Part shown: one piece after another, positions 3-25,974 of the stretch
Layout: each line of letters begins with the position of its first letter
Position numbering within the stretch: the first letter of the stretch is position 1
The notes under the pieces: generated by a model
The model's database searches: none
Seen by the model: only the letters and a program-made list of their open reading frames with translations
What the model was told of the DNA's origin: nothing
Virus record (IMG/VR): IMGVR_UViG_3300040985_000384
Location: 1-29,482 of that record
DNA: 29,482 nucleotides
Source: a virus
Lineage: Duplodnaviria; Caudoviricetes
Direction: 5' to 3' (one strand)
Program-made: the position numbers and the translations under genes

Positions 3-97
3 AGCTTGGACGAGTTGGATATGGACAAATTGGACGTAGACAAATACCCGCTGTTGTATGGTCAATGCTCTAATGCGGAACTGGATGCCAGCGTTAC
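3..97. repeat. Terminal direct repeat, left copy (circular assembly overlap)
   Basis: 95 bp identical to 29387-29481; falls inside a gene that reads through the join. Confidence 0.95.
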
Positions 98-386
98 AGT
101 ATTCACCTACGAAATCATTGTGGCTGACTTGGCTATTGAAAAGCAAGAAGAGTTGCTCACGCAGATTTACTCTGAAACCTTTCTCATCCTCCAAGACGTA
201 GCGGCCAAATTTCGTTTCGCAGTATATGGTGGCAACACCACAGTGGACGGAAACTGGAACTTTGAACTCCCCCTATCCTGTGACCCATTCACTGCTCGCT
301 TCGACAATTTGCTTACGGGGTGGTCAACCTCTTTTGACATCAGGTTGCCCAACGTCATAGACCTGTGCGATGCGCCTTACTCGTAA
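6..386 (+). CDS. 3' part of putative tail completion/terminator protein (gene starts at ATG 29306 and wraps the origin)
   Basis: Frame continuous with MQTVVDINN...FSLDELDMDK from 29306; size and position between chaperone and neck/tail genes. Confidence 0.6.
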   Translation: MDELDMDKLDVDKYPLLYGQCSNAELDASVTVFTYEIIVADLAIEKQEELLTQIYSETFLILQDVAAKFRFAVYGGNTTVDGNWNFELPLSCDPFTARFDNLLTGWSTSFDIRLPNVIDLCDAPYS

Positions 387-987
387 GCTTGTTCTACACC
401 TCAATATCGAAGGAACTCTTGAGCCTTTGTTCTTTACGCACCTGCAAAAAGCATTAAACAAATTAGGCAAGCGAGTAGTTTCAGGTGCGCGAAAGGTTCT
501 TGCGAGTCAAAATAAAGTAGTCTCAGGCAACCTGAGCAGGTCACTATATTACACCATCGAAGGCACGAAGGATACCATAGAGGTAACCTTTGCTGGTGGT
601 GTCCCATACTGGGACTTTGTGGAGCAAGGGGTGAAGGGGAAAATCTCAGACAAGAAAGCACCGCATAGCCCATTTCAGTTTGGGTCGGGGAAACCACAGG
701 CCAGCAGTGGAACGCTGCGCGGGGGGATAGATAGGTGGGTCATCCAAAAACCAGTAGGCCAAATCCGCGACAAGGCAGGAAGATTCGTCACACGTAAGTC
801 AATGGTCAGTGCTATAAGTTGGAGCGTATATAACTATGGCATCGCCCCATCTAACTATTACAGCATCGCCCTAGACCGTGGATTTAAGAAAGCGAAGAAG
901 ATGATAGCTCAAGCGGTCGGCGAAGATGTCTTCGTGTTTTTGCGAGAAAAGTCACAAGCTATATATAGTATTACAATCATCATCTAA
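370..987 (+). CDS. Putative neck/virion morphogenesis protein (HK97 gp10-like)
   Basis: Basic 205 aa protein with SGNLSRSL and YWDFVEQG motifs typical of gp10-like proteins; TAATG coupling to next gene. Confidence 0.55.
   Translation: MRLTRKLVLHLNIEGTLEPLFFTHLQKALNKLGKRVVSGARKVLASQNKVVSGNLSRSLYYTIEGTKDTIEVTFAGGVPYWDFVEQGVKGKISDKKAPHSPFQFGSGKPQASSGTLRGGIDRWVIQKPVGQIRDKAGRFVTRKSMVSAISWSVYNYGIAPSNYYSIALDRGFKKAKKMIAQAVGEDVFVFLREKSQAIYSITIII
960..970 (+). promoter_or_regulatory. Putative late promoter motif TATATATAGTA
   Basis: Same TATATA motif as at 7454, 8820, 11830 and 14100; 16 nt upstream of ATG 987. Confidence 0.4.
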
Positions 988-2384
988 TGGCATTCACAGT
1001 TACTCAAGACACCACAGGCGTACAGGGTGTAGCCGACGACCTCATTTACGTTGTCAAAGACGACCCCTTGACAGGAACTATCAACTTTAGGTATATCTGC
1101 TCCGTTCGTCTCGACGGCGCGGAAGTGGTACAGCTAAAGCAACTACCCAACAATAGTAACTGTGCAGTTTTCAATACGCGCAGCATCGCGGCAAACTATG
1201 TGCGGCAAGACGATATGCCCTACTCTCTTGGGGCAACGGGCATAGACGGCTCACTAGATACGGCGAAGATTTTCTCTACTAACACCGAGGCATTGAAGAC
1301 TTTCACCTTTCGCTTCGGGTACGAGTTTTCTGCAACCGCCGCAGATGCCCCTGCTGAAACGCTCAAGCCCTCCACCGATATAGAAGTAACGTGCTTAAAC
1401 GCAACCTTCGTTTCTCCTACCGCTTCCCTTCCCTCCAGCACAGCTGCAACTGACTATAAATTAACATCCTCTTCTCGGTTATTTCTGTCCGACATTACGG
1501 CAGAAAGAAAGGGAGGAGCGTACCCAACCTCTATTTTATACACCGCTGGCGGGGACACGCAACGTGCAGCACTAGCATTTCTAAATGGGGATGACGTAGG
1601 CTCTACAGGTTCGGACTACCTCCACGTTTCTTATTACAACGGAGCGTCAGCCTTGAATACGGGGTACTTTACAAACGATACGGCGCAGGGAGGCAAAGCT
1701 CCAGCAGCGGGTTTAACTGATGCCCAAAGTTTACTCTATGTAGGCGTTGGCACTTACAACTTGGAAGAGCAGGGGATAGATGTTGACATGAGGCCGTCAG
1801 CCGCTGGGAATGCCGATTGGACACACTACGATATTCGCATGGCAAGCTCCACCACTTTGTCGGGGAATGAAACCTCGGCATTGTACAGATTCGAGCGCGT
1901 AACCTGCGGGAAGTACGTACTGGACAATCAGCAGTATTCTCTTCACTGGTGGAACTCCAAAGGAGGCGTGGATAATCTACCTGTACTTGGAAAGGTGAAC
2001 GAGTCGCAGCAAATTGCCAAACAGAGCTACCGAACATCAGGTGGCAATAGTCTTGACGCTGATGGCTCATCTACGGTATTCGTTAAGCAGCCGTGGCAAG
2101 GCGGCAAGAGAAGCACCAAAGTTCAAACGACAACTACCTATGAGCTGTCTACCATTGGGGGAAGCCCCGACCAGTTGACACCTTTAATTCGCTCACTACT
2201 CAATTCCGAGAGGGTTTTCCTTTCAGGAACTGGAGTGTGGGGAGGAAACCTCAACGACGATGAGTCCGGTATTGTGCAGGCGTATGTTACGGACACGCAG
2301 GTTACGTACCTGTCTTCCGTTAATGACAAAGCGATTAGCTACAAAGTGAAAGTAGAAATTAGCCGTAGAAGAGCGAACCCATAA
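987..2384 (+). CDS. Tail/baseplate structural protein
   Basis: 465 aa, T/S/G-rich, WWNSKGGVD motif, directly upstream of the large tail protein. Confidence 0.6.
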   Translation: MAFTVTQDTTGVQGVADDLIYVVKDDPLTGTINFRYICSVRLDGAEVVQLKQLPNNSNCAVFNTRSIAANYVRQDDMPYSLGATGIDGSLDTAKIFSTNTEALKTFTFRFGYEFSATAADAPAETLKPSTDIEVTCLNATFVSPTASLPSSTAATDYKLTSSSRLFLSDITAERKGGAYPTSILYTAGGDTQRAALAFLNGDDVGSTGSDYLHVSYYNGASALNTGYFTNDTAQGGKAPAAGLTDAQSLLYVGVGTYNLEEQGIDVDMRPSAAGNADWTHYDIRMASSTTLSGNETSALYRFERVTCGKYVLDNQQYSLHWWNSKGGVDNLPVLGKVNESQQIAKQSYRTSGGNSLDADGSSTVFVKQPWQGGKRSTKVQTTTTYELSTIGGSPDQLTPLIRSLLNSERVFLSGTGVWGGNLNDDESGIVQAYVTDTQVTYLSSVNDKAISYKVKVEISRRRANP

Positions 2385-5300
2385 TGGTACAAATAGTAGC
2401 ATACGAACAAACGGGAACTACGCAATACGAGCTAGACGTTCCGGGTACACCTATCGAGCTGAACTACCAGTTCATAGACCTCAACGACCCTATGTCTCGG
2501 AGGAGTCCTTACTCGTTTAGGTTTACTCTCCCCCTGTCGAAAGAAAACAATAAGTTCTTCTCGTTCTATTACGACGCGAATATTTCTTCGGGGACTTTCG
2601 ATGCGATGAAGAAGACCGAATGCCGATTGCTAAATGACGGGGCTCTGCTTATGCAAGGGTCGTTGCAGATGTACTCGGTCAATGAGAGTGGATACGAGGT
2701 AAGCATCCTTGAGCAAATTTCCCAAGTCTTTGATGCGGTAAAAGGCTTGACATGGGAAGAGCTATTTACTACGGACGCAGGCACGTTGGACACCGACTTA
2801 GACCACGCGCTTACATGGGACAACGTAAAGGACTCGTGGGTTACGACAAACGACATAACTACGGGAGCTGTCGGAGATGGAACGATTGTCTATCCCCTTT
2901 CCGATAGCGCACAGGGCTTAGGGGTGAACACTCAGAGCATTGGCGCAGACGTAGGCTTTTGGTTCAATTCTACGGGCGGAATGCAGGACTCTAACCTGTC
3001 AGTTTTGAATCTCAAGCCCGCTATTCGTGTGGCGTACCTGATAGATTACATTTTCCAAAAGTCCGGGTTTACGGTGTCCAGCACCTTCCTTAATAGCGCA
3101 GACATTCAAAAGGTTTATATGTTCCTAGCTACTGAAGTGGTGAGGACACAAGGAAGGCCAACCTATGGCTGCAAGGCGGGCATGGATGCGGAAATGGTTT
3201 TGGACTCCTCGCAGCCCAGCACTTGGCATAACATCCTATTTCCCGATGAAAGCACCTCACCATTTTATGACCCTGATGGGCTGATGAGTGGAGGAATATT
3301 TGTTGCTCCCTACGATGGTGTTTTCGAGTTCAAAACCAATATCGTTGTTACCTCTGCAACGGTGGCAGTCACGGGATATAACATTCAGATTCGCCTGACA
3401 GTAGACGGGGATTCCAATGAAAGCGACATCTCACAAACGGGGGTCGTCGATGGTGTCACAACGATAGTTAGCGACCAGCGTTCTTTGCAGCTAACAAGTG
3501 GGCAGACGGTTTCCGTTTGGGTAGCGTCATCGAATGACAACTATAACGTAACGGTAAATCTTACGGGGGCAGACTCGGCAACGTACTTTGAGTTGGTGCA
3601 GTATAGCACCACCAGTCAGTTTGTGGATGTGTCACAAAACTTTCCCGACGTATCCGTAGGGGGATGGCTCAAGGCCATAGTTCAGAGGTTCAACTTGGTA
3701 ATAATTAGCGACCCCGCACAACCTACCGTTATTCAAATCGAACCGTGGGAAGATTGGTGGGATGATGGAACAGACAACAAAGACTGGACAGAAATTGTAG
3801 ACCAAGACTCCGTAAAGATTGAGCCTACGCTTGCTATGCAAAAGAAGTCCTACGAGTTTACAGACGCGGAGGGCGAAAACTTTCAGAATCTGTGGTGGCA
3901 GCATCACTTTGGCTGGATAAAAGGGAAGTATTCTTTTCTTAACGAGAATGACTTTGTAACAGACGAGGCGACAACGGAGCAGGTTTTCCAGCCATATCGG
4001 AATAGGAAACTTCATACGAACATCCAAAATACAGGGGAGTCTATTGTACCCAATGTTCTTCTCCCTACGTTTTGGGATTGGCTAGAATCCGGCGCACAGT
4101 TTAGCCTAAACATGAAGGAGTTTGTCGCGTGTAAGCCTGTGATAGCATATTACAACGGCCTACAAGACATCGGCAACGGATACACCTTTCAGTTCGGAGG
4201 TACAGACTACACCACCTACCCCTACTTCGCCGAGTTCAATACGGTAGGAGTGACAACAACAACCAAGAGTTTGGCATGGGGATATGATTATCCCGACAAC
4301 TTCTACTCCCCATTTATTAGCGGAGGGACTACGGGAGGAACGACTTTGAAATACGCCTTTCACCAGTATTGGTCAAAGATGTTCAATGAGATTTACAGCG
4401 AGGACTCCCGCGTGATGACCTGTAAAGCGAACCTGAGCTACACGGATTTATACAACCTCAAGTTCAACGACAACATTTATTTGGATGGGTGCTTTTGGCG
4501 CGTCTTGAGCGTTGACAATTTTGCGGTAGGCGGCAACACCTTAGCCAATGTCAAGCTCATTAAAGTTATAGACAAGCCACCCGGAAGAAAGTCGGGGTCA
4601 TGTTCTGCCCGTCCTTCGAGCTTTAACACTGACGGAACGGTGAATTTTGTAGACACCGTAACGGGTGCTGCGGTCAGTCCCACTGAGCCGTGTTGCACGT
4701 TGGGTGGGTACGTGTGGGACGAAAGCTCCAGCCAATGCTTTAGCCGCAACGGAGGCGGCGGTGGCGGCGGTGGAGGCACAGGCGGTGGTGGTGGAAATGG
4801 TGGGGGTGGTGTAGGACACGACAAGCCAGTTCTCACTGTGGCTCAAACGCCAAACTCCTACACAGATTTTGCGCGGGACGACGTTAAGTCATTTTTTCAG
4901 GCTGGCGTAATAGGCACAAATATTTCCACGAGGTTGTTTGCAAAAAGCACCAGCACCACACCGCATAATGCAACAACCGATACTGGACTGGGGGCTTGGC
5001 AAATTCCGATAGATAGCGTGGTATATGTTCGCCTGCAAGCACTCGTAGTTGAGGTCGGAGGGTCAGCGGGAACAGTTGGAAATACCGTCTCCCAATCTGT
5101 GCAGGCAACGGTGGCGAATACCCGTACCACGCCAGCAGCCAAGTCTACGGCTAGAGATGTTGGGTCAACCACGGTGATAGCAGAAAATAAAGACACGGCT
5201 TCGGCGGCAACGATAGCCATTTCTTCGACGCAAGCGTCAGCGGGTGCAGCGGCTACATTCAGCGTTTCGTGTACAGGGCAAACGAATGTGAACGCCGTAT

Positions 5301-5452
5301 GGTTTATAGATATGGAGCTGACCACCTTGCAAATCAGCGGAAGCACAAAAACACTTGCCCGACAGATTATATATAACCTTGACCCCAACATCGTAGAGTA
5401 CGCTGACTTGACACCTGATACTGCTATGTACTACAACTTGCCGCTATTATGA
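2384..5452 (+). CDS. Large tail tip/hub protein
   Basis: 1022 aa; N-terminal SPYSFRFTLP..NNKFF tail-hub-like motif, beta-rich insert, Cys cluster, poly-Gly linker and C-terminal beta domain. Confidence 0.65.
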   Translation: MVQIVAYEQTGTTQYELDVPGTPIELNYQFIDLNDPMSRRSPYSFRFTLPLSKENNKFFSFYYDANISSGTFDAMKKTECRLLNDGALLMQGSLQMYSVNESGYEVSILEQISQVFDAVKGLTWEELFTTDAGTLDTDLDHALTWDNVKDSWVTTNDITTGAVGDGTIVYPLSDSAQGLGVNTQSIGADVGFWFNSTGGMQDSNLSVLNLKPAIRVAYLIDYIFQKSGFTVSSTFLNSADIQKVYMFLATEVVRTQGRPTYGCKAGMDAEMVLDSSQPSTWHNILFPDESTSPFYDPDGLMSGGIFVAPYDGVFEFKTNIVVTSATVAVTGYNIQIRLTVDGDSNESDISQTGVVDGVTTIVSDQRSLQLTSGQTVSVWVASSNDNYNVTVNLTGADSATYFELVQYSTTSQFVDVSQNFPDVSVGGWLKAIVQRFNLVIISDPAQPTVIQIEPWEDWWDDGTDNKDWTEIVDQDSVKIEPTLAMQKKSYEFTDAEGENFQNLWWQHHFGWIKGKYSFLNENDFVTDEATTEQVFQPYRNRKLHTNIQNTGESIVPNVLLPTFWDWLESGAQFSLNMKEFVACKPVIAYYNGLQDIGNGYTFQFGGTDYTTYPYFAEFNTVGVTTTTKSLAWGYDYPDNFYSPFISGGTTGGTTLKYAFHQYWSKMFNEIYSEDSRVMTCKANLSYTDLYNLKFNDNIYLDGCFWRVLSVDNFAVGGNTLANVKLIKVIDKPPGRKSGSCSARPSSFNTDGTVNFVDTVTGAAVSPTEPCCTLGGYVWDESSSQCFSRNGGGGGGGGGTGGGGGNGGGGVGHDKPVLTVAQTPNSYTDFARDDVKSFFQAGVIGTNISTRLFAKSTSTTPHNATTDTGLGAWQIPIDSVVYVRLQALVVEVGGSAGTVGNTVSQSVQATVANTRTTPAAKSTARDVGSTTVIAENKDTASAATIAISSTQASAGAAATFSVSCTGQTNVNAVWFIDMELTTLQISGSTKTLARQIIYNLDPNIVEYADLTPDTAMYYNLPLL

Positions 5453-5616
5453 AATATTGGATTAACGCCGTGGGATATAGCATACCGCAACTGGTGAGGA
5501 CGTTGAGGTCGAATAGGTTTAAGGGTAACCGCCTGTATTCACAATGGTATGGTAGGTACGCACTCAACAAGGGATTGTTTAAGGCAATTAAACTAGTATG
5601 GCAAAATGGCAAGTGA
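5449..5616 (+). CDS. Small basic hypothetical protein (55 aa, not in ORF track)
   Basis: ATGA overlap with upstream stop; MKYWINAVGYSIPQLV...VWQNGK fills the gap before the 5606 gene. Confidence 0.6.
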   Translation: MKYWINAVGYSIPQLVRTLRSNRFKGNRLYSQWYGRYALNKGLFKAIKLVWQNGK

Positions 5617-7447
5617 AAGCAAGATAAAGATAATAATGGAGGCCGACGACAAGGCCACCGAACCCATCAACAGAGCTACCGAGGCCGTGCAGGAACTGGG
5701 CAAGGAAACTGAAAAATTAACTAGGGAGTCAAAAAAGAACTGGAGTGGGTTGGCTGACCTATTTGGAACGGTTCTTCCGCGCGACCTGAAAAGGCTAACG
5801 CGAGGATTTAAGGGAACTCAGCGTCAGGTGGGCAGGCTTGCCAAAGGGTTTAAGGTATTAAGAACGGCGTGGGCTTCTATTGGAATTGGTCTGATTATAG
5901 TTGCACTAGAGCAAATCGTTTCTAACTGGGATAAAATCTCTGAGTCACTAGGCTTATACAATAAGGAAGCTGAGGAAACAGCAAAGATTAACACGGACAT
6001 CAAAGTGTCCACTGACGAACTGATACGGCAGACCCAAGCGTATAGGGCAGAGTTGCGCTATGCAACATACGGAAGTGAAGAGCATAAAATTGCCGTTGAA
6101 GGTCTGAACCGCATATTGGGTAATGGGATAGATATTGAGGCCGACAGACAGACGCAAAATAGGCAGTCCAATGCTTTACTGGAGGCAAATACAAAGCTCA
6201 TCAAGGCGAAGAAAAAGGCTGAAGCGTTAGAGCTGAAGGCCCATGTTGAAGGCGAAGAAATCCGTTCACGGAAGGCTAAAGACAGGTCTATGTGGGACCA
6301 GTTAAGTCAGGGTGTTGCTGAGTGGCGGAACGAAAATGAAAAGGAAATAACGGCCCTCACAAATGCTGCGGCTAAAGCCAAAGCTGCGGAGGTAGAAGCA
6401 GAGGCCGCGCTGAACGCTATCATAACCAAAACGAATAAAACTATTGACGAGAGAACGGAGGCAGAGCGCGAAGCAGAACTGGAACGTAAGAAGTCGATAG
6501 CCGATAAGAAGGCAGACGCTAAGTGGCTGGCAGGTCAGCGGGTGCAGATGGCTCAAGAGACAGAGCTGAGGCTAATTAAGGACGAGGAGCAGAGAGATTT
6601 GCGCCGCCTAGAGATGCAGCATGAAGCGGCAAAGACAGAGCTAAAGGCACGGGGAGGAACAAAAGAAGACTTGGAAGCCCTTGAGAAGAAGCATGGGTTG
6701 GACATGGCTGAGATAGTAAAGGACTACCAAGACAAAGCCGACGAAGCTCAAAACATTTTAGACGAAGAGGCCGCAGCGAATAGAGAGATGGTGCGAGCAG
6801 CCCTAGCCACCGAAGAAGAGAACGAGCTAAAAAGACTCAAAGACAAATATGTTGAAGAGCAGCTTGCAGCGGCAGGCAACTTTGAGGCACTCTTTAAGCT
6901 GGATGAGAAGTACAGAGACGACGAAAAGGCGGTACGGGATAAATATGACAAAGAAGAGCTAGAAGCAGAGCAGAAGTTGCAGGACGCAAAGCTCGCGGCA
7001 AAAAAGAAACTCGTCGGTTCGGTGTCGGGCTTACTCCGAGAACTGGGGGACGCAGCCGAGGAGGGTTCAGAGCAGCAGAAGCGTTTAGCGATTGCTGATG
7101 TATTGGTCAATCAAGCTATGGCTATGGCTAACGCCGTGGCAGCGGCAGCGAAAGCATCTAAGGAGGGAGGCCCAGCAGCCCCGTTCTTATTTGCTGCTTA
7201 TGTGGCAACCATGCTAGGAACAATAGCTTCGACTTTCACGAGCATCAAGAGTATTATGAGCGATGCCGATGCTCCAACCCCGTCCGGGGGAGGCATGGGA
7301 AGCAGGGGTGGATTTGCTCCTACAGCCCAAGTTCCTCTCCCCGCGCGGATAGACTCTCCTGATTCCCTTCAGGCGTATGTGGTGCAGTCACAGTTGCAGG
7401 GGCAAATGAATGCACAAGGTAAACTGCACGGACAGATAGTTTTGTAA
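5606..7447 (+). CDS. Tape-measure-like coiled-coil tail protein
   Basis: 613 aa A/E/K-rich helical protein with hydrophobic segments (GIGLIIVAL; APFLFAAYVATMLG) and C-terminal QAYVV. Confidence 0.65.
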   Translation: MASESKIKIIMEADDKATEPINRATEAVQELGKETEKLTRESKKNWSGLADLFGTVLPRDLKRLTRGFKGTQRQVGRLAKGFKVLRTAWASIGIGLIIVALEQIVSNWDKISESLGLYNKEAEETAKINTDIKVSTDELIRQTQAYRAELRYATYGSEEHKIAVEGLNRILGNGIDIEADRQTQNRQSNALLEANTKLIKAKKKAEALELKAHVEGEEIRSRKAKDRSMWDQLSQGVAEWRNENEKEITALTNAAAKAKAAEVEAEAALNAIITKTNKTIDERTEAEREAELERKKSIADKKADAKWLAGQRVQMAQETELRLIKDEEQRDLRRLEMQHEAAKTELKARGGTKEDLEALEKKHGLDMAEIVKDYQDKADEAQNILDEEAAANREMVRAALATEEENELKRLKDKYVEEQLAAAGNFEALFKLDEKYRDDEKAVRDKYDKEELEAEQKLQDAKLAAKKKLVGSVSGLLRELGDAAEEGSEQQKRLAIADVLVNQAMAMANAVAAAAKASKEGGPAAPFLFAAYVATMLGTIASTFTSIKSIMSDADAPTPSGGGMGSRGGFAPTAQVPLPARIDSPDSLQAYVVQSQLQGQMNAQGKLHGQIVL

Positions 7448-7453
7448 ACACCC

Positions 7454-7468
7454 TATATAGGATAATAG
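7454..7468 (+). promoter_or_regulatory. Putative late promoter (ACACCC-TATATAGGATAATAG)
   Basis: Occupies the intergenic gap before the protease; shared motif. Confidence 0.5.
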
Positions 7469-7477
7469 ACAGACAAG

Positions 7478-8566
7478 ATGGCTGAAAGAAAATTAGTTGA
7501 ACTCCTGATTGGAGATGAAGAAACTGGGCTACCAGTTGAGGCTATCTCGTTGGTCAAGTTCCCAGCGATAGAAGAGAACTTCCTTTTCTTCTCTAAAGGA
7601 AAAAACACCAAAGCCCTTTCCCTCGCCCAAGTGGAAGAGGATAAGCGCACCCTAATTGGTGCTGCCCTCATCCCCGACAAGCACATACCTCGCTACGATG
7701 AGATGACCGACGAGGAATACGATGTGTATTTTTCTAAGGACACCGTGAAGTTGGCGAGCGAGATATACATGAAGCACTCACGCACCAACGAGCATACCCT
7801 TGAGCATGAGTCGGTGGTGGAAGACGTTCACGTTGTCGAGTCGTGGCTCGTGGAGAATCCTGAGATGGATAAATCCAAGCACTACGGAATGGCAATGCCC
7901 GAAGGGACATGGATGGTGCGGGTGAGGGTAGACAACGACGAGATGTGGCAACAGGTGAAGGACGGCTCGATTCGTGGCTTCTCCATCGAGGGATACTTTA
8001 TAGACAAGGTAGAAGAGATGTCAACGAAAGTAAAACCAACCCACATGAAGAAGAGACTAAAGAAAATTTGGTTCAGCATCAAGCGGAAGTTCTATTCAGA
8101 AATCACTCTAGACACTGGCGTAGTAATTGCCACGGAGGATGATAGCTTCGGTTTGGGTACAACTGTAATAGCCATTGATGACGAGGGACTGCCTACCGAC
8201 CTCAAGAACGGAAAGTACACCACCGAGGCCGGAGTAATATTAGAGGCGTTTGATGGGGTTCTAATAGAGTGGGACGGGGAGAGAGAGGAAGCAGAAGAAA
8301 CCCAGCCTGAAGCGGAGAACGACGAGGAAGTAGAGATGGATAAGGTGGAGCTAGACCAAGAGAAAGTAAAGTTTTGGCGCACGTACCTCGATGTCAAAAT
8401 GCAAAAAGAATTTGGAATTAACACCAAAAAGGATGTATATTCACAGAAGTTAAACCTTGAGGCTTATCCGTGGGACGAGTGCATCGCCGACCAAATGGCA
8501 ACTTACGGGGATATGGAGACGGCAGAAAAGATTTGCGGTAGCATAAAAGCAAAATATGGAAGTTAA
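7478..8566 (+). CDS. Prohead maturation protease (XkdF-like) with C-terminal acidic extension
   Basis: AISLVxxPAIEENF, GAALIPD, EH, VESW, GTW and GFSIEG motifs of XkdF-type phage serine proteases. Confidence 0.85.
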   Translation: MAERKLVELLIGDEETGLPVEAISLVKFPAIEENFLFFSKGKNTKALSLAQVEEDKRTLIGAALIPDKHIPRYDEMTDEEYDVYFSKDTVKLASEIYMKHSRTNEHTLEHESVVEDVHVVESWLVENPEMDKSKHYGMAMPEGTWMVRVRVDNDEMWQQVKDGSIRGFSIEGYFIDKVEEMSTKVKPTHMKKRLKKIWFSIKRKFYSEITLDTGVVIATEDDSFGLGTTVIAIDDEGLPTDLKNGKYTTEAGVILEAFDGVLIEWDGEREEAEETQPEAENDEEVEMDKVELDQEKVKFWRTYLDVKMQKEFGINTKKDVYSQKLNLEAYPWDECIADQMATYGDMETAEKICGSIKAKYGS

Positions 8567-8567
8567 A

Positions 8568-8807
8568 ATGAGCAGCATTGACAGAGCGCACAGACTCCTC
8601 GACTTTTTTGAGGAGTGGGAAGTAGAAACGATTAACCAGCCTGAGATGGGTTGGTCGTCCTACGAAGTCATAATTTACGATGACGCAACAGGTGACGAGA
8701 AGCGGTTTGAAGTGTGGGCAGAAAGCGAAGATTTGCTGCGCCAAGACATAGTGTTTTATTTGCCTGACAGCATGGTAATTGATTACATCAGTCAAACTTG
8801 GGGATAA
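8568..8807 (+). CDS. Small acidic hypothetical protein (first gene of acidic island; alternative start 8556)
   Basis: 79 aa, D/E- and aromatic-rich, starts 1 nt after protease stop. Confidence 0.7.
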   Translation: MSSIDRAHRLLDFFEEWEVETINQPEMGWSSYEVIIYDDATGDEKRFEVWAESEDLLRQDIVFYLPDSMVIDYISQTWG

Positions 8808-8819
8808 GCACCCTTTAGA

Positions 8820-8832
8820 TTATATAGAATAG
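8820..8832 (+). promoter_or_regulatory. Putative late-type promoter TTATATAGAATAG upstream of ArdA-like gene
   Basis: TATATA motif preceded by GCACCCT, resembling the 7447-7468 and 11824-11843 elements. Confidence 0.45.
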
Positions 8833-8848
8833 AAGAAAAGCATTTATC

Positions 8849-9541
8849 ATGAAGCTAGAGAAGATTTATATTTTCATGGAACCCTACGATTTTAACTTTC
8901 GTGGGAAAGGATTTTATATCTATCCTTTTTCTTTTCGCTCTTGGGATGACTTCCAAGACGGCATGAAAGATTCATACGCCAACTACCCGATGGGGGTCGA
9001 GGAGTGGGAGTTTGTAGATTCAGATGGAATCAATGCTTATGGGGAAGACAGCGTAGGAATCACCGAGGACAACTGGGACATGATTAAAGAGTTTGGTGAG
9101 TTTGGTGAGGAAATCGGGCTAAACATTCTTGAAATCTTAGACGTAGCGTCACAGTTAGGTGGAGACAAGGACTACTTGGAAGAGGCGTATATGGGTATGC
9201 ACGACTCTATTAAGGATTATGCCTATGAGCTTTTGGACGACATAGGGATAAGTGAGGACATGGCAGAAACCTATTTCGATTGGGAACATTTCGGTCGGGA
9301 GTTGAAGTGGGACTTTAATGAGGATATGTTAGTAGAGGAGTACGGGTATTCAGTATCGGAGGCACAAGAGCTAATGGACTCAAGAGACTCAGATTTTGCT
9401 GAGTGGTATGTTGAGATGTTAGGGAGCGTAGCAGAGCTAGGGAAAGAAACCCTGAAGAGCTACTTTGACTACGATAAGTTCGCAAGAGATTTAAGCTATG
9501 AATACTCTCTCATCGAGGGAAGAGTATGGATGCAGCACTAA
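8849..9541 (+). CDS. ardA: ArdA-like antirestriction (DNA-mimic) protein
   Basis: Extremely acidic 230 aa; EEWEFVD, YxG..S..DYAYEL, YFDWEHFGREL and YFDYDKFARDL match ArdA family signatures. Confidence 0.7.
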   Translation: MKLEKIYIFMEPYDFNFRGKGFYIYPFSFRSWDDFQDGMKDSYANYPMGVEEWEFVDSDGINAYGEDSVGITEDNWDMIKEFGEFGEEIGLNILEILDVASQLGGDKDYLEEAYMGMHDSIKDYAYELLDDIGISEDMAETYFDWEHFGRELKWDFNEDMLVEEYGYSVSEAQELMDSRDSDFAEWYVEMLGSVAELGKETLKSYFDYDKFARDLSYEYSLIEGRVWMQH

Positions 9542-9552
9542 CCAACAGAGAT

Positions 9553-9795
9553 ATGTATTTTGGAATAAAAGTTTTTGACGCAGACGAAGACCAAGTCTAT
9601 CGTGATTTGATTGGTCTAAACAGAGATATGGGCAACCCTTACGCAAAAATTGAAGGGGATGCACATAGTATGACGAGTCTTGTAGCACAACAAGGCAATG
9701 ACGTTTTTATTGAAATGCTTGGGCGTAATGGTGGTGAGCATGAAATTATTGAGTGGCTCGAAGATTTAGGTTATAGCACATCTATCGAATACTAA
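9553..9795 (+). CDS. Cassette 1, small acidic protein (80 aa)
   Basis: Starts at the repeat ATG and ends at the next repeat TAA. Confidence 0.8.
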   Translation: MYFGIKVFDADEDQVYRDLIGLNRDMGNPYAKIEGDAHSMTSLVAQQGNDVFIEMLGRNGGEHEIIEWLEDLGYSTSIEY

Positions 9796-9806
9796 CCAAC
9801 AGAGAC

Positions 9807-10028
9807 ATGGATGTATATATAGATGGGATGACCCAAAGAGATGCGATGGAGGCCCAGCATGAACTGCAACTTCTTGACTTCACCGTCAGTTGGTTTTACG
9901 AAGATGATGCCAGTTGGCTCACAATGGTTGTTGAGGATATAGACAATGTTCCGTTCCATCTTGATGGCGTAATCGACATCTTTATAGACGACTGGGAGGC
10001 AAGGGGATTTGAAGTAACTTACTCATAA
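9807..10028 (+). CDS. Cassette 2, small acidic protein (73 aa)
   Basis: Repeat-bounded; 18 D/E, 2 R, 0 K. Confidence 0.85.
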   Translation: MDVYIDGMTQRDAMEAQHELQLLDFTVSWFYEDDASWLTMVVEDIDNVPFHLDGVIDIFIDDWEARGFEVTYS

Positions 10029-10039
10029 CCAACAGAGAT

Positions 10040-10315
10040 ATGAATGAACACGAGCTAATAGATTTGATTGTCGAGTGGCTAGTTGACAACACGCAACACA
10101 TCGTACACAATCAGGCGGTTGGAAATTGGGAGCTGATAGAATTTGATGATTCTTACTTAGAAATTTTAGTTTACGATTTGTCATACGACGAAGAAAACGC
10201 CGTCTATGATTTTGAAAGAAAATTCAATCGAGATTACGCAGGTGAGTGGGAGATGGAAATAAGCCCCGAATCAAACTATACGCGTCACACGATTGTTTGT
10301 CGGAGGGCATACTAA
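10040..10315 (+). CDS. Cassette 3, small acidic protein (91 aa)
   Basis: Repeat-bounded ORF. Confidence 0.85.
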   Translation: MNEHELIDLIVEWLVDNTQHIVHNQAVGNWELIEFDDSYLEILVYDLSYDEENAVYDFERKFNRDYAGEWEMEISPESNYTRHTIVCRRAY

Positions 10316-10326
10316 CCAACAGAGAT

Positions 10327-10569
10327 ATGGTACAGATTAACGATATGATTCACGACCTTGAAAGCGAGGGGTATGAAGTTCTTGATTACGGACAAACATT
10401 GCACGTTTATGTTTATGATACGGTGAGTCCCGGCCCGGGTGGAATTTACTATATGATGCCTAACGAAAATATGGCAGACGACATTTACGATATTGCTTCA
10501 ATGTATGCTTCAGTCCATGTGGAAATTGACCGTCAAAGCAGAGTCGTTTTAGTAGAGGTGTTAAGCTAA
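10327..10569 (+). CDS. Cassette 4, small acidic protein (80 aa, MVQINDMIHD...)
   Basis: Repeat ATG at 10327 preferred over the ORF-track start at 10246. Confidence 0.8.
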   Translation: MVQINDMIHDLESEGYEVLDYGQTLHVYVYDTVSPGPGGIYYMMPNENMADDIYDIASMYASVHVEIDRQSRVVLVEVLS

Positions 10570-10580
10570 CCAACAGAGAT

Positions 10581-10790
10581 ATGGAATTTAGATACTATTT
10601 AGAATACGCCGAAGCTGATGAGCAGCGCGTTATGGATTTTATGAGCAGGGTGTACGATTACCCAAGCGAATACGAATACGATTATGAAATGGGTACGTTA
10701 ATCATTTACACTAACGTAGAGCCTGTTTCACTCGAAGAAGACATTTTTGCTTCTACTTCGCTGTATGCTGTTAATTACGGCAGAGCCTAA
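10581..10790 (+). CDS. Cassette 5, small acidic Tyr-rich protein (69 aa)
   Basis: Repeat-bounded; 15 D/E, 11 Y, 0 K. Confidence 0.85.
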   Translation: MEFRYYLEYAEADEQRVMDFMSRVYDYPSEYEYDYEMGTLIIYTNVEPVSLEEDIFASTSLYAVNYGRA

Positions 10791-10801
10791 ACAACAGAGA
10801 T

Positions 10802-11038
10802 ATGAGTTTTATTGACGAATTAGTTTACGAGTACGAGAGAGGGGGAGGAGTAATTGTCGGTCGGATTGAAGAGTCGTCTCGTGGAACTGTCATTGAAATT
10901 TTAGACCCCAACGGGATGAGCGTTTCATATTTTGAGGATATGGCATACGACGCTGCTGAGTTTCTTGGGGTAGATTTAAGACCTCATATTAAATGGGATG
11001 TTTTGTCAGGAGAAGTGTTAGAGGTAGTAATTAGATAA
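10802..11038 (+). CDS. Cassette 6, small acidic protein (78 aa)
   Basis: Repeat-bounded ORF. Confidence 0.85.
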   Translation: MSFIDELVYEYERGGGVIVGRIEESSRGTVIEILDPNGMSVSYFEDMAYDAAEFLGVDLRPHIKWDVLSGEVLEVVIR

Positions 11039-11049
11039 CCAACAGAGAT

Positions 11050-11331
11050 ATGAGAGGATATAGTTTAAGTCGGGCTTCAGATGAACTTCATGCTTTGGTG
11101 GAGGAATGGTATGGTAAAATTAGTATTACAGAATACGGTGATGTTTATGACCCGTCAGGGATTTGGGAGTCCTTTATGAACTGGGACGAGCGCATAAACG
11201 ACCCTAGCTTCACCCGTCAATTATATGACCGTGACTTGTTGTGCGACCCTGAGTGGATGAGCTGGTTCGTTGATAACGGTGGAGACGTAGATGAGTTTGA
11301 GCGTAAGCACGGGGATTTGAATTGTTACTAA
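11050..11331 (+). CDS. Cassette 7, small acidic Trp-rich protein (93 aa)
   Basis: Repeat-bounded ORF. Confidence 0.85.
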   Translation: MRGYSLSRASDELHALVEEWYGKISITEYGDVYDPSGIWESFMNWDERINDPSFTRQLYDRDLLCDPEWMSWFVDNGGDVDEFERKHGDLNCY

Positions 11332-11343
11332 CCCTCAGAGAAC

Positions 11344-11556
11344 GTGAAGCAAGTTGACATCTATATACCTATGCGGGATTCTGACCGCTTCGATGAGTTC
11401 ATATCGGACAACGGAATCGAGTGGTATTATGAGTCAGGCCACGTTGATGCGTCTATGCGAAAGTGGCGAACCATCCCGTTGAGCGAGTCTGAGATTGCCG
11501 AACTTTTTGACAGTCTCGATTACGAGTTTGAGGACTTTGAATTTCACCCCTTCTAA
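11344..11556 (+). CDS. Cassette 8, small acidic protein (70 aa, GTG start)
   Basis: Follows the degenerate repeat; TAATG-coupled to next gene. Confidence 0.75.
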   Translation: MKQVDIYIPMRDSDRFDEFISDNGIEWYYESGHVDASMRKWRTIPLSESEIAELFDSLDYEFEDFEFHPF

Positions 11557-11819
11557 TGAATCCACTAATCAGTAGAATTTGGGATGTGTGGACGAACACT
11601 CCACAGACCGAGCTTTTCAATATCATTGACGAGTTCAGGCTAGACTATGCGCTGGACGACACATGGAATCACGCTCTAGACATCATCGAGGAGGCAATCC
11701 TCAAGGAAGAGTACGACCGTGCTGAGGTGATTTTCCACGAGATGCGCCCACCCTACCTACGGCAACTAGACTACGATGTGTTCATGGAAACGCTAGATAC
11801 GGCCCGCTGGGACTATTAA
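11556..11819 (+). CDS. Small acidic helical protein (last gene of island, 87 aa)
   Basis: Same composition bias; not preceded by a repeat. Confidence 0.75.
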   Translation: MNPLISRIWDVWTNTPQTELFNIIDEFRLDYALDDTWNHALDIIEEAILKEEYDRAEVIFHEMRPPYLRQLDYDVFMETLDTARWDY

Positions 11820-11829
11820 AGGAAACACC

Positions 11830-11843
11830 TTATATATATTAGT
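11830..11843 (+). promoter_or_regulatory. Putative late promoter TTATATATATTAGT abutting the scaffold ATG
   Basis: Shared motif, preceded by AAACACC. Confidence 0.5.
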
Positions 11844-12374
11844 ATGGCAAACAGAAAGTTTGAAGAAGAGGTTGTTGAGGAAGAGACAACCGTAACCGAA
11901 GAAACCGTGGAAGAAGCCCCCGACTCCCACGAAGCATTTGTAACAATTTTAGTTGACATGGGGTTGTCAGCAGAACAAGCTGAGGCAGTGCATTCAATGG
12001 CAATGGACTTGATAGATGCAGGCAGCAGCGAAGAAACCACTACTGAAGTGAAAGAAGAAGTAAAAGTAGAAGCGAGCCGTCAACGCGGTCGTCGCTCACG
12101 CCCTACTCGCGGTCGTCGTTCTGAGTTTGCTCGTTCTGAGCGTTCAGGTCGTCGTGAGATGAGTCAGGAAGAATTAGACGCTCGCAGAATGCGCCGTCTA
12201 CGTCGTCAAAATGTAGAGATGCGTAAGCAACTACAAGAGCTGGGAGCATCACCTGCTGCTGGCCCATTGCGTAATGCTCCAAACGTGAAGCAAGAGAACT
12301 TCTCTGCGCCGAATAAGAACCTCTCTAAAGGCACATCGGCTGCTTTAGAAATGATTAACAACTACGGGAAATAA
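11844..12374 (+). CDS. Capsid scaffolding protein
   Basis: E-rich N-terminal half, Arg-rich segment, coiled coil and PAAGPL tail; immediately upstream of MCP. Confidence 0.65.
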   Translation: MANRKFEEEVVEEETTVTEETVEEAPDSHEAFVTILVDMGLSAEQAEAVHSMAMDLIDAGSSEETTTEVKEEVKVEASRQRGRRSRPTRGRRSEFARSERSGRREMSQEELDARRMRRLRRQNVEMRKQLQELGASPAAGPLRNAPNVKQENFSAPNKNLSKGTSAALEMINNYGK

Positions 12375-13432
12375 TGAGTTTTCAATTAGAACAAACATCT
12401 CGCGGCCTACGTCGTCGCAAATTCTATGATGCTGGTGAAGGGCCGGGTGTCAGCGCAAATAGTTATGCGGGTGTCCAAGCTCTGCCTTATGTAACTCCAG
12501 CCCTCAAGCTGGCCGACACCTTGAATAAGGGTTTCGTCCGTCAAATCGACGGCATCCAAAACAAGGCTGTTATTTCCAACTTTAGCTCAACGGCTAACAT
12601 CCAAGACGCGAACTGCGATTGGGCAGATGGTACTAATGTAACTCTCGGCGAGCGCGTTCTTACGCTTACTGACCTAGCAGTTATGGAGGCTCTCTGTCGT
12701 GGCACTCTCCTCCCAACGTGGGCAGGCATGACTGGTGCGCGGGAGACTATGACTGCTGGCTCACCTGAGTTTGTAAACTTCGCTATGGCTACCATTGCTG
12801 GTACTTGCGCTCAGGGTGTAGAAGTGGGCATTTGGCAGGGGATTGATTTAACGGCCAATGTTGTTGGATTCCTTTCTGATGTTGGTTCTTTAACTGCCGC
12901 AGGATACGCGGCTTCAGTGCTTGGTACAGCTACTGGGGTTAATGAAATTGATGTCGTTTCGACTGGTTTCGATGCTGCTGCTAGTGCTATTGTAGGAGCA
13001 ACAGGTGCGTTTAATGCCGTGTATGAAGGCGCATTAACTAACTGCCCTGCTGTTCTCAACCGCACAGACATTGCTTACTACTGCTCTCCAAAGACAGCAG
13101 GAGCATATATGCTCGGACTTGCAATTTCAGGAGCACATCAAGGTGTCAATATGCAGTCAACCGACCAAGCATTCGACACCTTGCAGTACCTCGGTATTCC
13201 TATCCATGTATGCCCCGGTATGCCGGACAATGCCTTGATTCTGACATACGAGGAAAATCTCGTTGTTGGTTCTAACCTCAACACGGACTACACCTCGGCT
13301 CAGTATATTGACAGTTGGGCTTATGATGGTTCTGACCAAGTTAAAATTGCTTTGCGGTTTGGACTCGGAATGCAGGTTGGCGTTCCAAATGACGTTGTTG
13401 TTGGTTGCTTTGAGGACATCTTCCCCGTCTAA
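12374..13432 (+). CDS. Major capsid protein
   Basis: 352 aa following protease and scaffold; IWQG and YLGIPI..PGM..N motifs typical of HK97-fold MCPs. Confidence 0.85.
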   Translation: MSFQLEQTSRGLRRRKFYDAGEGPGVSANSYAGVQALPYVTPALKLADTLNKGFVRQIDGIQNKAVISNFSSTANIQDANCDWADGTNVTLGERVLTLTDLAVMEALCRGTLLPTWAGMTGARETMTAGSPEFVNFAMATIAGTCAQGVEVGIWQGIDLTANVVGFLSDVGSLTAAGYAASVLGTATGVNEIDVVSTGFDAAASAIVGATGAFNAVYEGALTNCPAVLNRTDIAYYCSPKTAGAYMLGLAISGAHQGVNMQSTDQAFDTLQYLGIPIHVCPGMPDNALILTYEENLVVGSNLNTDYTSAQYIDSWAYDGSDQVKIALRFGLGMQVGVPNDVVVGCFEDIFPV

Positions 13433-19011: not shown

Positions 19012-19217
19012 TGACTTACGAACTAATCTCGGTGGGGCTAGGAGCAGCTTCGGGAATTATTGGAACTTATATCAAAATGCAGAACGAAATAGTAAAGGTC
19101 AAAAGCCGTGTTTACTCTTTGGAAAAGCAAGAGACTAAGGTGCAGGCTACTCTCGATGTATTGGTAGAAGGGGTGAATGAGATTAAAATCTTACTAGCGA
19201 AGAAAGGAATTGAGTAG
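19011..19217 (+). CDS. Membrane-anchored coiled-coil protein, possible lysis accessory/holin-like
   Basis: N-terminal hydrophobic helix followed by coiled coil; start of lysis module. Confidence 0.5.
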   Translation: MTYELISVGLGAASGIIGTYIKMQNEIVKVKSRVYSLEKQETKVQATLDVLVEGVNEIKILLAKKGIE

Positions 19218-20055
19218 TCTAGTAACAAAAGACAAAGACATTCACATTCTCCCGCTAGACTTCACAGGCGCAGGAGATACGAAGACTATCTACTTGTTGT
19301 CGGACGTTCACTTCGATTCAGTGAAGTGCGACCGCAAGTTATTCTTCAAGCACTTGGACATGGCAAAGGAGGAGGGCGCGTCTGTCTTTATTTTGGGCGA
19401 CCTCTACGACCTTATGCAGATGCGGTTCGACCCACGCGGGGATTACGGCTCGCTGCGCCCTGAGCTAAAAGCTACGGCCTACATTGACGAGGTAATTAAG
19501 GACTGCACGGATAAGCTCTTGCCGTACAAGGATGTCATCAAGCTCATCTCTTTGGGCAACCATGAGACGAACATTATGAAGCGTCATGGTGTCGATGTCA
19601 TTCAGCGCACGGTAGGGGTATTAAATAACGAGGGCGCAGAAATAGTAGCTGGATACTATGCTGGCTGGGTAGTTCTCAAGTGTTCACAGAAAGGAGGGGG
19701 TCGCGGCAGCATCCCACTACATTACCATCACGGGTACGGAGGAAATGCGAAGCGGTCGAAGGGAGTTCTCAACGTAGATATTGACATGAAAGACTACCCG
19801 CAGGCGCGAATCATAGCGCGTGGACATACGCACCAAAAGTGGTACGTGCCAGTCATGCGGGATGTATTGACCTCGAACTTTGCCCACTCGCAGGAAACGG
19901 TTCATGTGGTTCAGACCGGGAGCTACAAAAAGAAAGACCGTTCAATTGGATGGGAGGTGGAGAAGGGATTCTCTACTCCGAGGCTGGGGGGCTGGAAGTT
20001 TGACATCAAGTTCATTGACAAAAAATACACCGTCTCGTGTGTCGAATTAAATTGA
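19210..20055 (+). CDS. Calcineurin-like metallophosphoesterase
   Basis: SDVH, GDLYD, GNHE, HHG and GHTH motifs. Confidence 0.85.
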   Translation: MSSLVTKDKDIHILPLDFTGAGDTKTIYLLSDVHFDSVKCDRKLFFKHLDMAKEEGASVFILGDLYDLMQMRFDPRGDYGSLRPELKATAYIDEVIKDCTDKLLPYKDVIKLISLGNHETNIMKRHGVDVIQRTVGVLNNEGAEIVAGYYAGWVVLKCSQKGGGRGSIPLHYHHGYGGNAKRSKGVLNVDIDMKDYPQARIIARGHTHQKWYVPVMRDVLTSNFAHSQETVHVVQTGSYKKKDRSIGWEVEKGFSTPRLGGWKFDIKFIDKKYTVSCVELN

Positions 20056-20637: not shown

Positions 20638-20725
20638 GCCCTTGTTTGCTGGGTAATTTGACCTACCTTAGCAGGGTGTGAGGCTTCTCCTTTTGCCTTA
20701 TTCGTATTTGGATTTTCATCTTTTT

Positions 20726-20758
20726 GACCCCTGACCTATAAACGGTTGGGGGTTTTTT
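20726..20758 (+). terminator. Rho-independent terminator ending the late/lysis operon
   Basis: ACCCCTGACC-tataaac-GGTTGGGGGT plus T tract. Confidence 0.75.
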
Positions 20759-20835
20759 ATACAACATTATCCCAACTAGTGTTAAATAAACACGAAGGAT
20801 TAGGTTTTCTCCCTACTTATTAGTATATTGAGGGG

Positions 20836-20896
20836 AGTTCTTTGACATAACGGATGCTATCCTAGACCCGACCGAAAGGGGAGGCGACGAGGCATC
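20836..20896 (+). promoter_or_regulatory. boxA-like antitermination element followed by a stem-loop
   Basis: AGTTCTTTGACATAA resembles rrn boxA; GATGC/GCATC-closed structure with CC-GAAA-GG apex. Confidence 0.5.
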
Positions 20897-20922
20897 AAGT
20901 GAAAATCCAAAAAAGAGAAAAC

Positions 20923-21222
20923 ATGAGTAATTTCAAAAGAAGAGATAACGGAGATGACCTGACTGGGGTCATTACGAGATTCAGCCTAACGGCTGATGAA
21001 GCAAAGCAGTTGACCTTTTACAAGACTGGTATCTGCTACGACCGCATAGGTTTTTCCATGCAAGTTCCTGATACTGGCGAGGACATCTCGAAAGAGATGG
21101 CTAAGTCAATTCAGGACAAGGTGTCCCAGCACGGTGCAGATGCTAATGGTGGCTGGCATCACGGACGACCCGCTGGCAGCGTATTCACCCTGTCCGAAAC
21201 GGCAGTTGAGTTTAGCTGCTAA
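20923..21222 (+). CDS. Hypothetical early protein (99 aa)
   Basis: ATG after an A-rich leader; flanked by the boxA-like site and a terminator. Confidence 0.65.
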   Translation: MSNFKRRDNGDDLTGVITRFSLTADEAKQLTFYKTGICYDRIGFSMQVPDTGEDISKEMAKSIQDKVSQHGADANGGWHHGRPAGSVFTLSETAVEFSC

Positions 21223-21237
21223 TAACAGATGGAAATT

Positions 21238-21262
21238 GGGGAGCGAAAGCTCCCCTTTTTTT
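21238..21262 (+). terminator. Rho-independent terminator
   Basis: GGGGAGC-GAAA-GCTCCCC-TTTTTTT. Confidence 0.9.
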
Positions 21263-21294
21263 ATGCACCATGTAATCGGTTAGAGTTTTTACCC

Positions 21295-21302
21295 TACCTT
21301 TG
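21295..21302 (+). promoter_or_regulatory. Bacteroidota-type -7 promoter element TACCTTTG
   Basis: Perfect TAnnTTTG just after the terminator, 4 nt before ATG 21307. Confidence 0.6.
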
Positions 21303-21306
21303 GGGT

Positions 21307-21633: not shown

Positions 21634-21800
21634 AAACTAAGAAAACAGTTTACCCGTCCGGGGGTGCTTCGTCTTACAACGACTGGATGGAGTCGTTAAC
21701 CAATTCCAACTTGACTGCCGAAGAAAGGTTTGAGGCAGAGTTCATGCGGATTTGGTCTGAATATAAACAGTCAATCATTGACGCTAGAACAAAAAAATGA
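21630..21800 (+). CDS. Hypothetical protein (56 aa)
   Basis: ATGA-coupled on both sides. Confidence 0.6.
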   Translation: MKTKKTVYPSGGASSYNDWMESLTNSNLTAEERFEAEFMRIWSEYKQSIIDARTKK

Positions 21801-24244: not shown

Positions 24245-24266
24245 ATTTACTTCGTATAATTGTTGA

Positions 24267-25973: not shown

Positions 25974-25974
25974 T

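Follow-up and report, generated by a model that had tools for sequence, protein, structure and literature searches.

Comparison with known systems

It has been proposed that genes of the T4-type phages RB49 and phi1 are gained and lost by crossover at elements called PeSLs, without a dedicated recombinase having been shown (PMC2839356). PeSLs are about 100 bp long, contain a sigma-70 promoter, a stem-loop and a Shine-Dalgarno sequence, are scattered over the hyperplastic regions of a large genome, and give rise to mini-circles when they cross over with one another (PMC2839356). Here we describe an array of small genes, or cassettes, in the head operon of the virus record IMGVR_UViG_3300040985_000384 (Duplodnaviria; Caudoviricetes; positions 1 to 29,482, called the window below), in which neighbours are joined by a 17-bp linker consisting of stop, spacer and start. 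Our comparison with related loci demonstrates, at the level of sequence, that the linker bounds each cassette, that cassettes move as units and that only phages with the same form, or dialect, of the linker have them in common. Like a PeSL, the linker runs from an upstream stop to a downstream start and flanks orphan open reading frames (ORFs) that vary among relatives. It differs in being 17 bp long, with no promoter or hairpin, in making up a single contiguous array within the head operon of a phage of only 29 kb, and in having a uniformly small, acidic cargo. Membership in the PeSL class was rejected on the promoter, the length of about 100 bp and the stem-loop terminator; as a mechanism, PeSLs would be the closest known.

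For function, the closest model would be the T4 proteins Ip1-3, both for the cargo and for its delivery. In T-even phages these are products of variable, non-essential small genes that are packaged and injected, and each blocks a restriction system; Ips have a common N-terminal packaging signal, and at least 10 have been reported (PMC12373910). The more than 200 families found here, in contrast, mostly have no common signal, are acidic, and would be loaded by protease fusion where a route is visible. Virion-delivered effectors such as the MuF and portal fusions and DarA/DdrB of phage P1 place conflict domains on head components; their injection is known in some cases and predicted in others, and the domains discussed include ArdA, mainly in polyvalent proteins of Firmicutes (PMC5512222). 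Here the prohead protease is instead the carrier, of a cargo drawn from a repeat-linked array. The SAS repeats of cluster K mycobacteriophages, which have an AGGAG core, are dispersed in the non-structural half of the genome and have a proposed role in translation initiation (PMC3203893). Like the array linker, SAS are short, non-palindromic repeats in one orientation at the start codons of unrelated genes; the linker, however, lacks AGGAG and is restricted to one head-operon array.

Our literature search found no account of this array, with most subscription journals outside its coverage. An integron has one leader promoter and tandem single-ORF cassettes that are reordered and exchanged, in which the array resembles it, and palindromic attC sites of 55-140 bp. 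The array differs in having a short direct repeat that contains stop and start, with neither an attC site nor an integrase match among the scanned ORFs. CRISPR arrays have repeats separated by non-coding spacers of 25-45 nucleotides (nt). An earlier reading of the sequence (the original prediction) had held that the array is neither of these, and we likewise rejected both: the integron because no IntI tyrosine recombinase was found among the scanned ORFs of the complete genome and the spacers are 11-12 nt, and CRISPR because every interval of 221-293 nt is a single ORF.

A 17-bp linker joins the genes of the array

The features of the locus are all on the + strand. Seven copies of the linker, with 0-1 mismatch, form junctions 1 to 7 at 9539-9555, 9793-9809, 10026-10042, 10313-10329, 10567-10583, 10788-10804 and 11036-11052; junction 6, which carries one mismatch, has the form commonest in the clade. 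A degenerate junction 8 of 18 nt at 11329-11346 is made up of TAA, 12 nt and GTG, and the homologue of the gene that follows also starts with GTG in a relative (L197). These positions, and the spacings of 254, 233, 287, 254, 221, 248 and 293 nt, had been predicted and were reproduced by a motif scan of both strands. The scan also bore out the claim that the linker is confined to the array, since no further copy was found on either strand of the window, even with 3 mismatches allowed. Shuffled sequences contained a mean of 0.02 copies, and none of 100 shuffles attained seven. A single ORF of 69-93 amino acids (aa) fills each interval, again as predicted, the lengths along the linker-joined row being 80, 73, 91, 80, 69, 78, 93 and then 70 aa. 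The layout is stop, 11 nt and start, with spacers of 11-12 nt between ORFs, and because of this position at stop and start the linker probably serves as an expression signal. It contains neither an inverted repeat nor AGGAG. Promoter-like sites numbered 11 against 11.2 expected, with none inside a linker, and terminator-like sites were not found on the + strand between 7300 and 13247. A structured RNA is not supported, as the array had no match in Rfam.

Related loci were collected in scans that used the linker and the protease and capsid proteins as queries. The set of 161 protease loci that we analysed comprises the window, three loci from the initial scans, and the loci obtained from the 80 best viral matches (of 264) and the 80 best metagenome matches (of 187); the protease stop falls within the locus in 140 of them. 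Our own ORF tiling called 990 genes, which were grouped into 218 BLASTP families, and two of these were dropped as mis-called pieces of scaffold or tape-measure genes to leave 216 array families.

The original prediction described eight unrelated genes. Eight linker-joined ORFs are present, but the array extends further, to the ORF at 8568-8807, an ArdA homologue and the ORF at 11556-11819. Among the eight ORFs and the two at 8568-8807 and 11556-11819, BLASTP found nothing better than E 0.38. The lack of relationship is less complete at long range: cassette 1 is linked to families F13, F14, F38 and F62 and cassette 8 weakly to F14 (E 1.3e-4), and because both link to F14 the two may be remote relatives.

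An alternative origin for such a row is recent tandem amplification of one gene, and an alternative product is a polyprotein made by frameshifting across the linker. Remote links between some families (56 pairs at E up to 1e-3) could be read in this way, as could the -1 frame of the linker, which is open and encodes LTNRDM, and a shortened linker copy at about 9617-9630 that is translated in frame within cassette 1. This copy coincides with an insertion absent from the homologues of cassette 1, where the confidence of its structure model is low, and cassette 1 may be a chimera built at a linker. Recent duplication, an outcome that by the original prediction would have spoken against its own reading, is refuted by the dissimilarity of the window cassettes, and 185 superfamilies are left when families are linked at E 1e-4. 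The start lies 14, 13 and 15 nt after the beginning of the stop in the AGAG linker and the two AT-rich linkers; because these give three different frames, there is no conserved frameshift and a polyprotein was rejected. We regard amplification or a polyprotein as very improbable.

Cassette identity ends at the linker

To locate the boundary of exchange, we compared cassettes whose DNA is at least 88% identical and whose neighbours differ, the counts being family-neighbour combinations and not independent events. Upstream, identity reached 14-16 nt in 76 of 127 comparisons and stopped within 24 nt in 125; downstream, the corresponding figures were 63 and 131 of 133. The modal extension of identity beyond the cassette was 14 nt, which is the length of the linker. 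Four of the five near-identical genome pairs examined vary by whole cassettes at linkers; the remaining pair comes from a lineage in which no clear repeat is present. Of 298 pairs with protease genes less than 80% identical, 33 have cassettes in common that are at least 95% identical; three of the 30 entries listed depend on L152, whose protease is truncated, and cannot be relied on.

Comparison of the window with eight runs, every one of assembled contigs, gave individual examples. Contig X3-16 matches the window along ArdA to base 9555, the end of junction 1, and then diverges, and contig X4-23 matches it along cassette 5 to 10804, the end of junction 6, before diverging. Cassette 6 lies between different flanks in contig X7-3 (10787-11052, 1 difference in 266 nt), and cassette 3 was found in contig X8-6 (10026-10330, three differences), so that both recur from linker to linker at ~99% identity in other marine contigs.

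Across the clade we found 111 distinct arrays, 61 of them complete with 2-15 genes each, lying downstream of the protease, upstream of it or on both sides. In upstream arrays the linker itself often joins the array to the protease. Gene order is not fixed: of the 537 family pairs that co-occur in at least two arrays, 111 were found in both orders, and 55 of 131 families are represented both upstream and downstream of the protease. The closest relatives of the window by protease (87-88% identical) have little array content in common with it; L197 has ArdA, F1 and homologues of cassettes 3, 4 and 8 in a different order, and L196 has F1 alone. Relatives thus vary in cassettes and order while DNA identity stops at conserved junctions, in agreement with the plug-and-play array that had been proposed. 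Of nine exact matches to the 17-mer in other contigs, three are arrays (L002, L003 and L006) and six lie within genes or in unrelated contexts.

The linker exists in dialects, of which 41 arrays have the AGAG type, 25 the AT-rich type and 6 the ACAACG type, with 18 not classifiable; none of the 72 classified arrays mixes them. Cassettes at least 85% identical (F1 excluded) are shared by 100 of 937 same-dialect pairs and by none of 1,374 different-dialect pairs when proteases are less than 85% alike. After collapse to 20 backbone clusters, sharing was seen in 31 of 87 same-dialect and 0 of 103 different-dialect comparisons, a separation matched by none of 20,000 label permutations. Near-identical cassettes are shared in 0 of 20 pairs of different-dialect backbones 75-85% alike and in 9 of 53 pairs of same-dialect phages less than 55% alike. 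On the protease tree L121 and L119, both of the AT dialect, group with AGAG phages, yet it is with the distant AT clade that they have cassettes in common. Such dialect-limited sharing is what homology-dependent exchange at the linker would predict.

These comparisons bear on the possibility that the unit is a translational coupling signal only, with mosaicism made by untargeted recombination and by selection for whole, expressed genes. The unit does lie exactly at the stop-start position, and selection alone also places boundaries at gene ends. In addition, older homologues found across dialects (F52, F8, F79 and F41) bear the resident linker, and therefore the linker is maintained by the genome. 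Coupling alone is harder to reconcile with a unit present at no other gene junction of the window, with near-identical cassettes that never cross between dialects even on closely similar backbones, or with the behaviour of L121 and L119; we consider it unlikely. The question of targeted versus selection-filtered phage mosaicism becomes directly testable, because natural linker dialects predict which phages exchange with which.

Several observations weigh against exchange directed by the linker. Neither an excised circle nor a crossover was observed directly in the material examined, all of it assembled contigs, and 17 bp is short for homologous recombination. Family scans recognised no recombinase, integrase or annealing protein among the window ORFs. 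Dialect tracks G+C content (medians 0.39, 0.42 and 0.47, overlapping), switches only 4 times on the protease tree, and may merely mark a common host. With these points included, linker-bounded shuffling of cassettes remains highly probable.

By this shuffling, linker copies would recombine within one genome or between co-infecting phages, and cassettes would be gained, lost and reordered. Because the linker supplies both stop and start, each product would be an expressible gene with its neighbours intact. The recombination and replication genes recognised in the window are a NinG/Rap junction nuclease and a replication initiator, and two early ORFs checked as candidate recombination proteins had no match. 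Since no integrase or annealing protein was recognised, we assume that a host, helper or replication-slippage route would drive the crossover.

A small acidic cargo with a predicted antirestriction member

The ORF terminated by the first linker (8849-9541) encodes a predicted ArdA antirestriction homologue of 230 aa with a net charge of -40 (PF07275, E 2.1e-13, 51.6 bits against a gathering cut-off of 27; phrog_2059, E 5e-16). All eleven array proteins of the window, namely cassette 0 (the ORF at 8568-8807), ArdA, cassettes 1-8 and F1 (the ORF at 11556-11819), are acidic, with isoelectric points (pI) of 4.05-4.26. Across the clade a pI below 4.6 was found in 209 of 216 array families and in 10 of 91 early-region ORFs. 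In size, in acidity and in their aromatic residues the small cargo proteins resemble DNA-mimic inhibitors.

We scanned 148 array proteins, consisting of representatives of the larger of the 216 families and four singletons, against protein families. Apart from ArdA the matches were DUF7249, DUF3846, one sub-threshold Pfam match and a few PHROGs of unknown function. The DUF7249 family (F4) stands in a particular relation to ArdA. In the 61 complete arrays, ArdA alone occurs in 32, F4 alone in 19, both in none and neither in 10 (Fisher p 7e-9, fused copies counted), and the two switch 11 times on the protease tree, partly at weak nodes. Either often occupies the first slot after the leader. The Pfam score of F4 is 27.4 for the free copy against a cut-off of 27, and that of the fused copy lies below the cut-off. 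An example of DUF7249 that takes the place of ArdA is found at L196:2096-2392; the family also fuses to the protease.

A structure model of F4, with a predicted local distance difference test score (pLDDT) of 80, aligns along its length to T7 Ocr, an all-helical DNA mimic with an acidic surface (Z 4.8, root-mean-square deviation 3.7, 80 aligned, rank 7 of 48,161 chains), a weak match. With its substitution for ArdA, its fusion to the protease and this weak resemblance, DUF7249 is a candidate antirestriction family and gains a suggested function. At E 0.001, Foldseek matched the model of cassette 1 (pLDDT 78) to none of the viral structures. When the sequences of solved structures were searched with profiles of F1, the cassette 1 group and F4, no significant match emerged, and the ESM Atlas gave no usable match for cassette 4.

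ArdA, the acidity of the cargo and its fusions to the protease, described below, point to a cargo function, where the original prediction proposed none. Because of the one named member, the exclusion pattern, the composition and the turnover, we consider a counter-defence role of the cargo probable. The proteins would inhibit host defence, many of them as DNA mimics, with ArdA assigned by homology and DUF7249 as its stand-in. Other observations count against this role. ArdA is the only named function among the 148 proteins scanned, and for the eight window cassettes Pfam, PHROGs and NCBIfam gave no informative match. In the weak F4 alignment Ocr is equalled or outranked by six unrelated chains, and Foldseek with the F4 model did not report it. 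The model of cassette 1 has a ferredoxin-like fold of a generic kind (best Z 7.6 in the PDB).

Cassettes might instead be shuffled and packaged but serve as internal head or decoration proteins, in the takeover of host enzymes, or in the exclusion of competitor phages. The near absence of functional matches among cassettes would fit such roles, as would the near-core status of F1, present in 54 of 61 complete arrays, unlike an arms-race gene, and the virion-protein-like composition of F5 (~260 aa, in 16 of 61). What makes this improbable to us is that the sole named member is an antirestriction protein, and that a turnover of more than 200 families together with the exclusion of ArdA and DUF7249 would fit diversifying selection by host defences better. 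With a counter-defence role, the arrays would offer expression screens a ready library of about 200 candidate proteins for counter-defence, uncharacterised so far and with their gene boundaries exactly delimited.

F5 itself (e.g. L209:10842-11636) is non-acidic and glycine- and threonine-rich and moves among acidic cassettes; it could be a fibre protein or decorate the head, and the ESM Atlas returned unnamed viral clusters only. Three arrays have a DUF3846-like gene as their first cassette (e.g. L336:4521-4781 and L178:9953-10213). A look-alike, recognised by eye, lies within the early region of another relative, and early-region genes are a possible source of new cassettes.

Candidate late promoters and protease fusions

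The array lies in the head operon, between the prohead protease and the genes for a putative scaffold and major capsid protein. A TATATA[G/T] motif was found in its strict form in 24 of the 59 leaders that follow the tape-measure gene, in 18 of 53 positions before the scaffold gene and in 13 of 524 inner junctions. In the window it occurs at 960, 7454, 8821, 11831, 14101, 26370 and 29233, before structural and packaging genes, and none was found in the early region (20640-26300). Close relatives have it at matching structural-gene positions, and it heads protease, scaffold and tail genes. We infer that TATATA[G/T] is a late promoter. No RNA data set was listed as containing the sequence, a result without bearing on whether the array is expressed.

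An in-frame array family ends 18 of 101 distinct protease ORFs of relatives, with 10 families represented (ArdA 5 times, F3 4, F80 2 and seven others once). The remaining ORFs have five long tails without a family match, one variant tail, 28 short YPWD tails and 49 short ends. Pfam confirmed protease joined to ArdA in L164 (9001-10635) and L156 (9001-10677), and five database proteins (P0001-P0005) fuse a protease with DUF7249 (F4)-like cargo. A further fused protease was seen at L170:279-1478. Such joining to a head protein is the strongest indication that the cargo would be destined for the prohead, and the prohead protease is thereby suggested as a head-loading route. A motif of two basic residues, any residue and F or L stands at the N-terminus of capsid and scaffold, internally in the protease and before some fused cargo. 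A basic-x-F/L motif starts 15 of 216 free cassette families, against 4.4 expected by shuffling.

On these grounds the array would be transcribed from the protease promoter and its products would enter the prohead, the weakest step of the proposal. Entry would be either as fusions to the protease, released by cleavage at [R/K][R/K]x[F/L], or as free proteins, and the cassette proteins would then be injected along with the DNA. Virion delivery has, in our estimate, a little better than an even chance. The window protease itself carries no array-family fusion, and the basic-x-F/L motif is absent from the window cassettes and present at a similar rate in early ORFs (5 of 91). The ArdA fusions of L174 and L193 were not confirmed by Pfam and are based on our own F2 profile (E about 1e-40), and a database search for longer ArdA relatives, a weak test, found none. 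Nine of 59 leaders carry a host-type TAnnTTTG element, and because of it early expression of the array is suggested in some lineages.

The host-type element also bears on whether the same linker-directed shuffling of counter-defence genes might serve proteins that are made early and act only in the producing cell, the head operon being a tolerated insertion site. An anti-CRISPR locus beside the head genes of Mu-like Pseudomonas phages is a parallel. Consistent with early action, the window cassettes have no packaging motif and ArdA has its own leader with the promoter-like motif at 8821, in addition to the host-type elements that head 9 of 59 arrays. The 10 cassette families fused in frame to the protease, however, tie the cargo to a head protein, the TATATA motif is shared with protease, scaffold and tail genes and absent from the window early region, and upstream arrays are often connected to the protease by the linker itself. 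We judge early action rather unlikely. The full combination of linker-directed shuffling, a counter-defence kit, and late synthesis with carriage in the virion appears to us evenly balanced between true and false. A stronger version, to which we give tentative and lesser credence, would be an integrase-free, integron-like armoury, in which the linker of 16-18 bp is the sole mobility device, dialects split gene pools, more than 200 proteins are mostly new head-loaded, injected inhibitors of defence, and DUF7249 is a new Ocr-like antirestriction family.

Genes of the locus

A candidate late promoter with the TATATA[G/T] motif, predicted from the motif at 7448-7462, heads the protease-array unit. 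The prohead (head maturation) protease follows at 7478-8566 (PF14550, E 1.8e-17; PHROG head maturation protease). It contains an internal KRKFY motif and ends in a 'YPWD' tail where relatives bear fused cassettes. This tail ('YPWD..CI.DQM', 8460-8566) has no family match and is the one found at the cargo position in 28 of the 101 distinct proteases.

Cassette 0 (family F21, 79 aa, 8568-8807) is an acidic gene between the protease and the ArdA leader. Contig X3-15 joins 8550 directly to 8820 without cassette 0, and the 3' end of cassette 0 resembles the protease end of close relatives, so that it looks to have been inserted into the last codons of the protease. The leader itself, of 41 nt (8808-8848), contains the second TATATAG motif, at 8821, and close relatives have it before ArdA or DUF7249.

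Cassette 1 (80 aa, 9553-9795), with the predicted ferredoxin-like fold, is followed by cassette 2 (73 aa, 9807-10028), which has no relative among the loci compared. Cassette 3 (91 aa, 10040-10315) has a copy 98% identical in nucleotides in L197 with other neighbours. Cassette 4 (80 aa, 10327-10569) belongs to a superfamily of F22, F9, F43 and F68 and has a 67% homologue upstream of the protease in L016 and L145, and cassette 5 (69 aa, 10581-10790) has a copy 91% identical in amino acids in L233, where the protease is 64% identical. Cassette 6 (78 aa) occupies 10802-11038, and BLASTP placed cassette 7 (93 aa, 11050-11331) in family F16 and cassette 8 (70 aa, 11344-11556) in family F104. The acidic near-core gene F1 (87 aa, 11556-11819), without a family match, completes the array. 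The downstream boundary is marked by a TATATAT motif (11825-11840) before the gene of the putative scaffold protein (11844-12374), which begins MANRKF and is assigned by position and composition without a family match. The putative major capsid protein (12374-13432) has RRRKF at its N-terminus and matches the virion structural protein family phrog_1623 (E 8e-8). Elsewhere in the window, the ORF at 24662-25225 has a weak sigma-factor match.

Genome, host and further observations

The termini of the window carry an identical 95-nt repeat (3-97 and 29387-29481), and because of this we take the 29.4-kb phage genome as complete and its assembly as circular. The closest isolates are the Nonlabens phages P12024L and S (protease 41% identical over 176 residues), and therefore the host is probably a marine flavobacterium. 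A scan of bacterial genomes returned two matching contigs, in Pseudomonadales and Parvibaculum bins, which we read as binned viral contigs that carry no evidence on the host.

Small acidic gene arrays without any of the three linker dialects were seen in high-G+C lineages (L131, L156, L166-L170, L174 and L193). A second variable slot lies in the lysis region, where the window has a metallophosphoesterase gene (19210-20055) between a holin-like gene and an amidase gene; L277 has there an acidic ORF of 129 aa (L277:2010-2399), and in L291 the slot is empty. A C-terminal tyrosine was found in 49 of 207 array families and 16 of 273 control genes. Its codon is TAC over the alternative by 35 to 14, with no such bias internally, and the terminal tyrosine may be either an extension of the linker at the DNA level or a protein signal.

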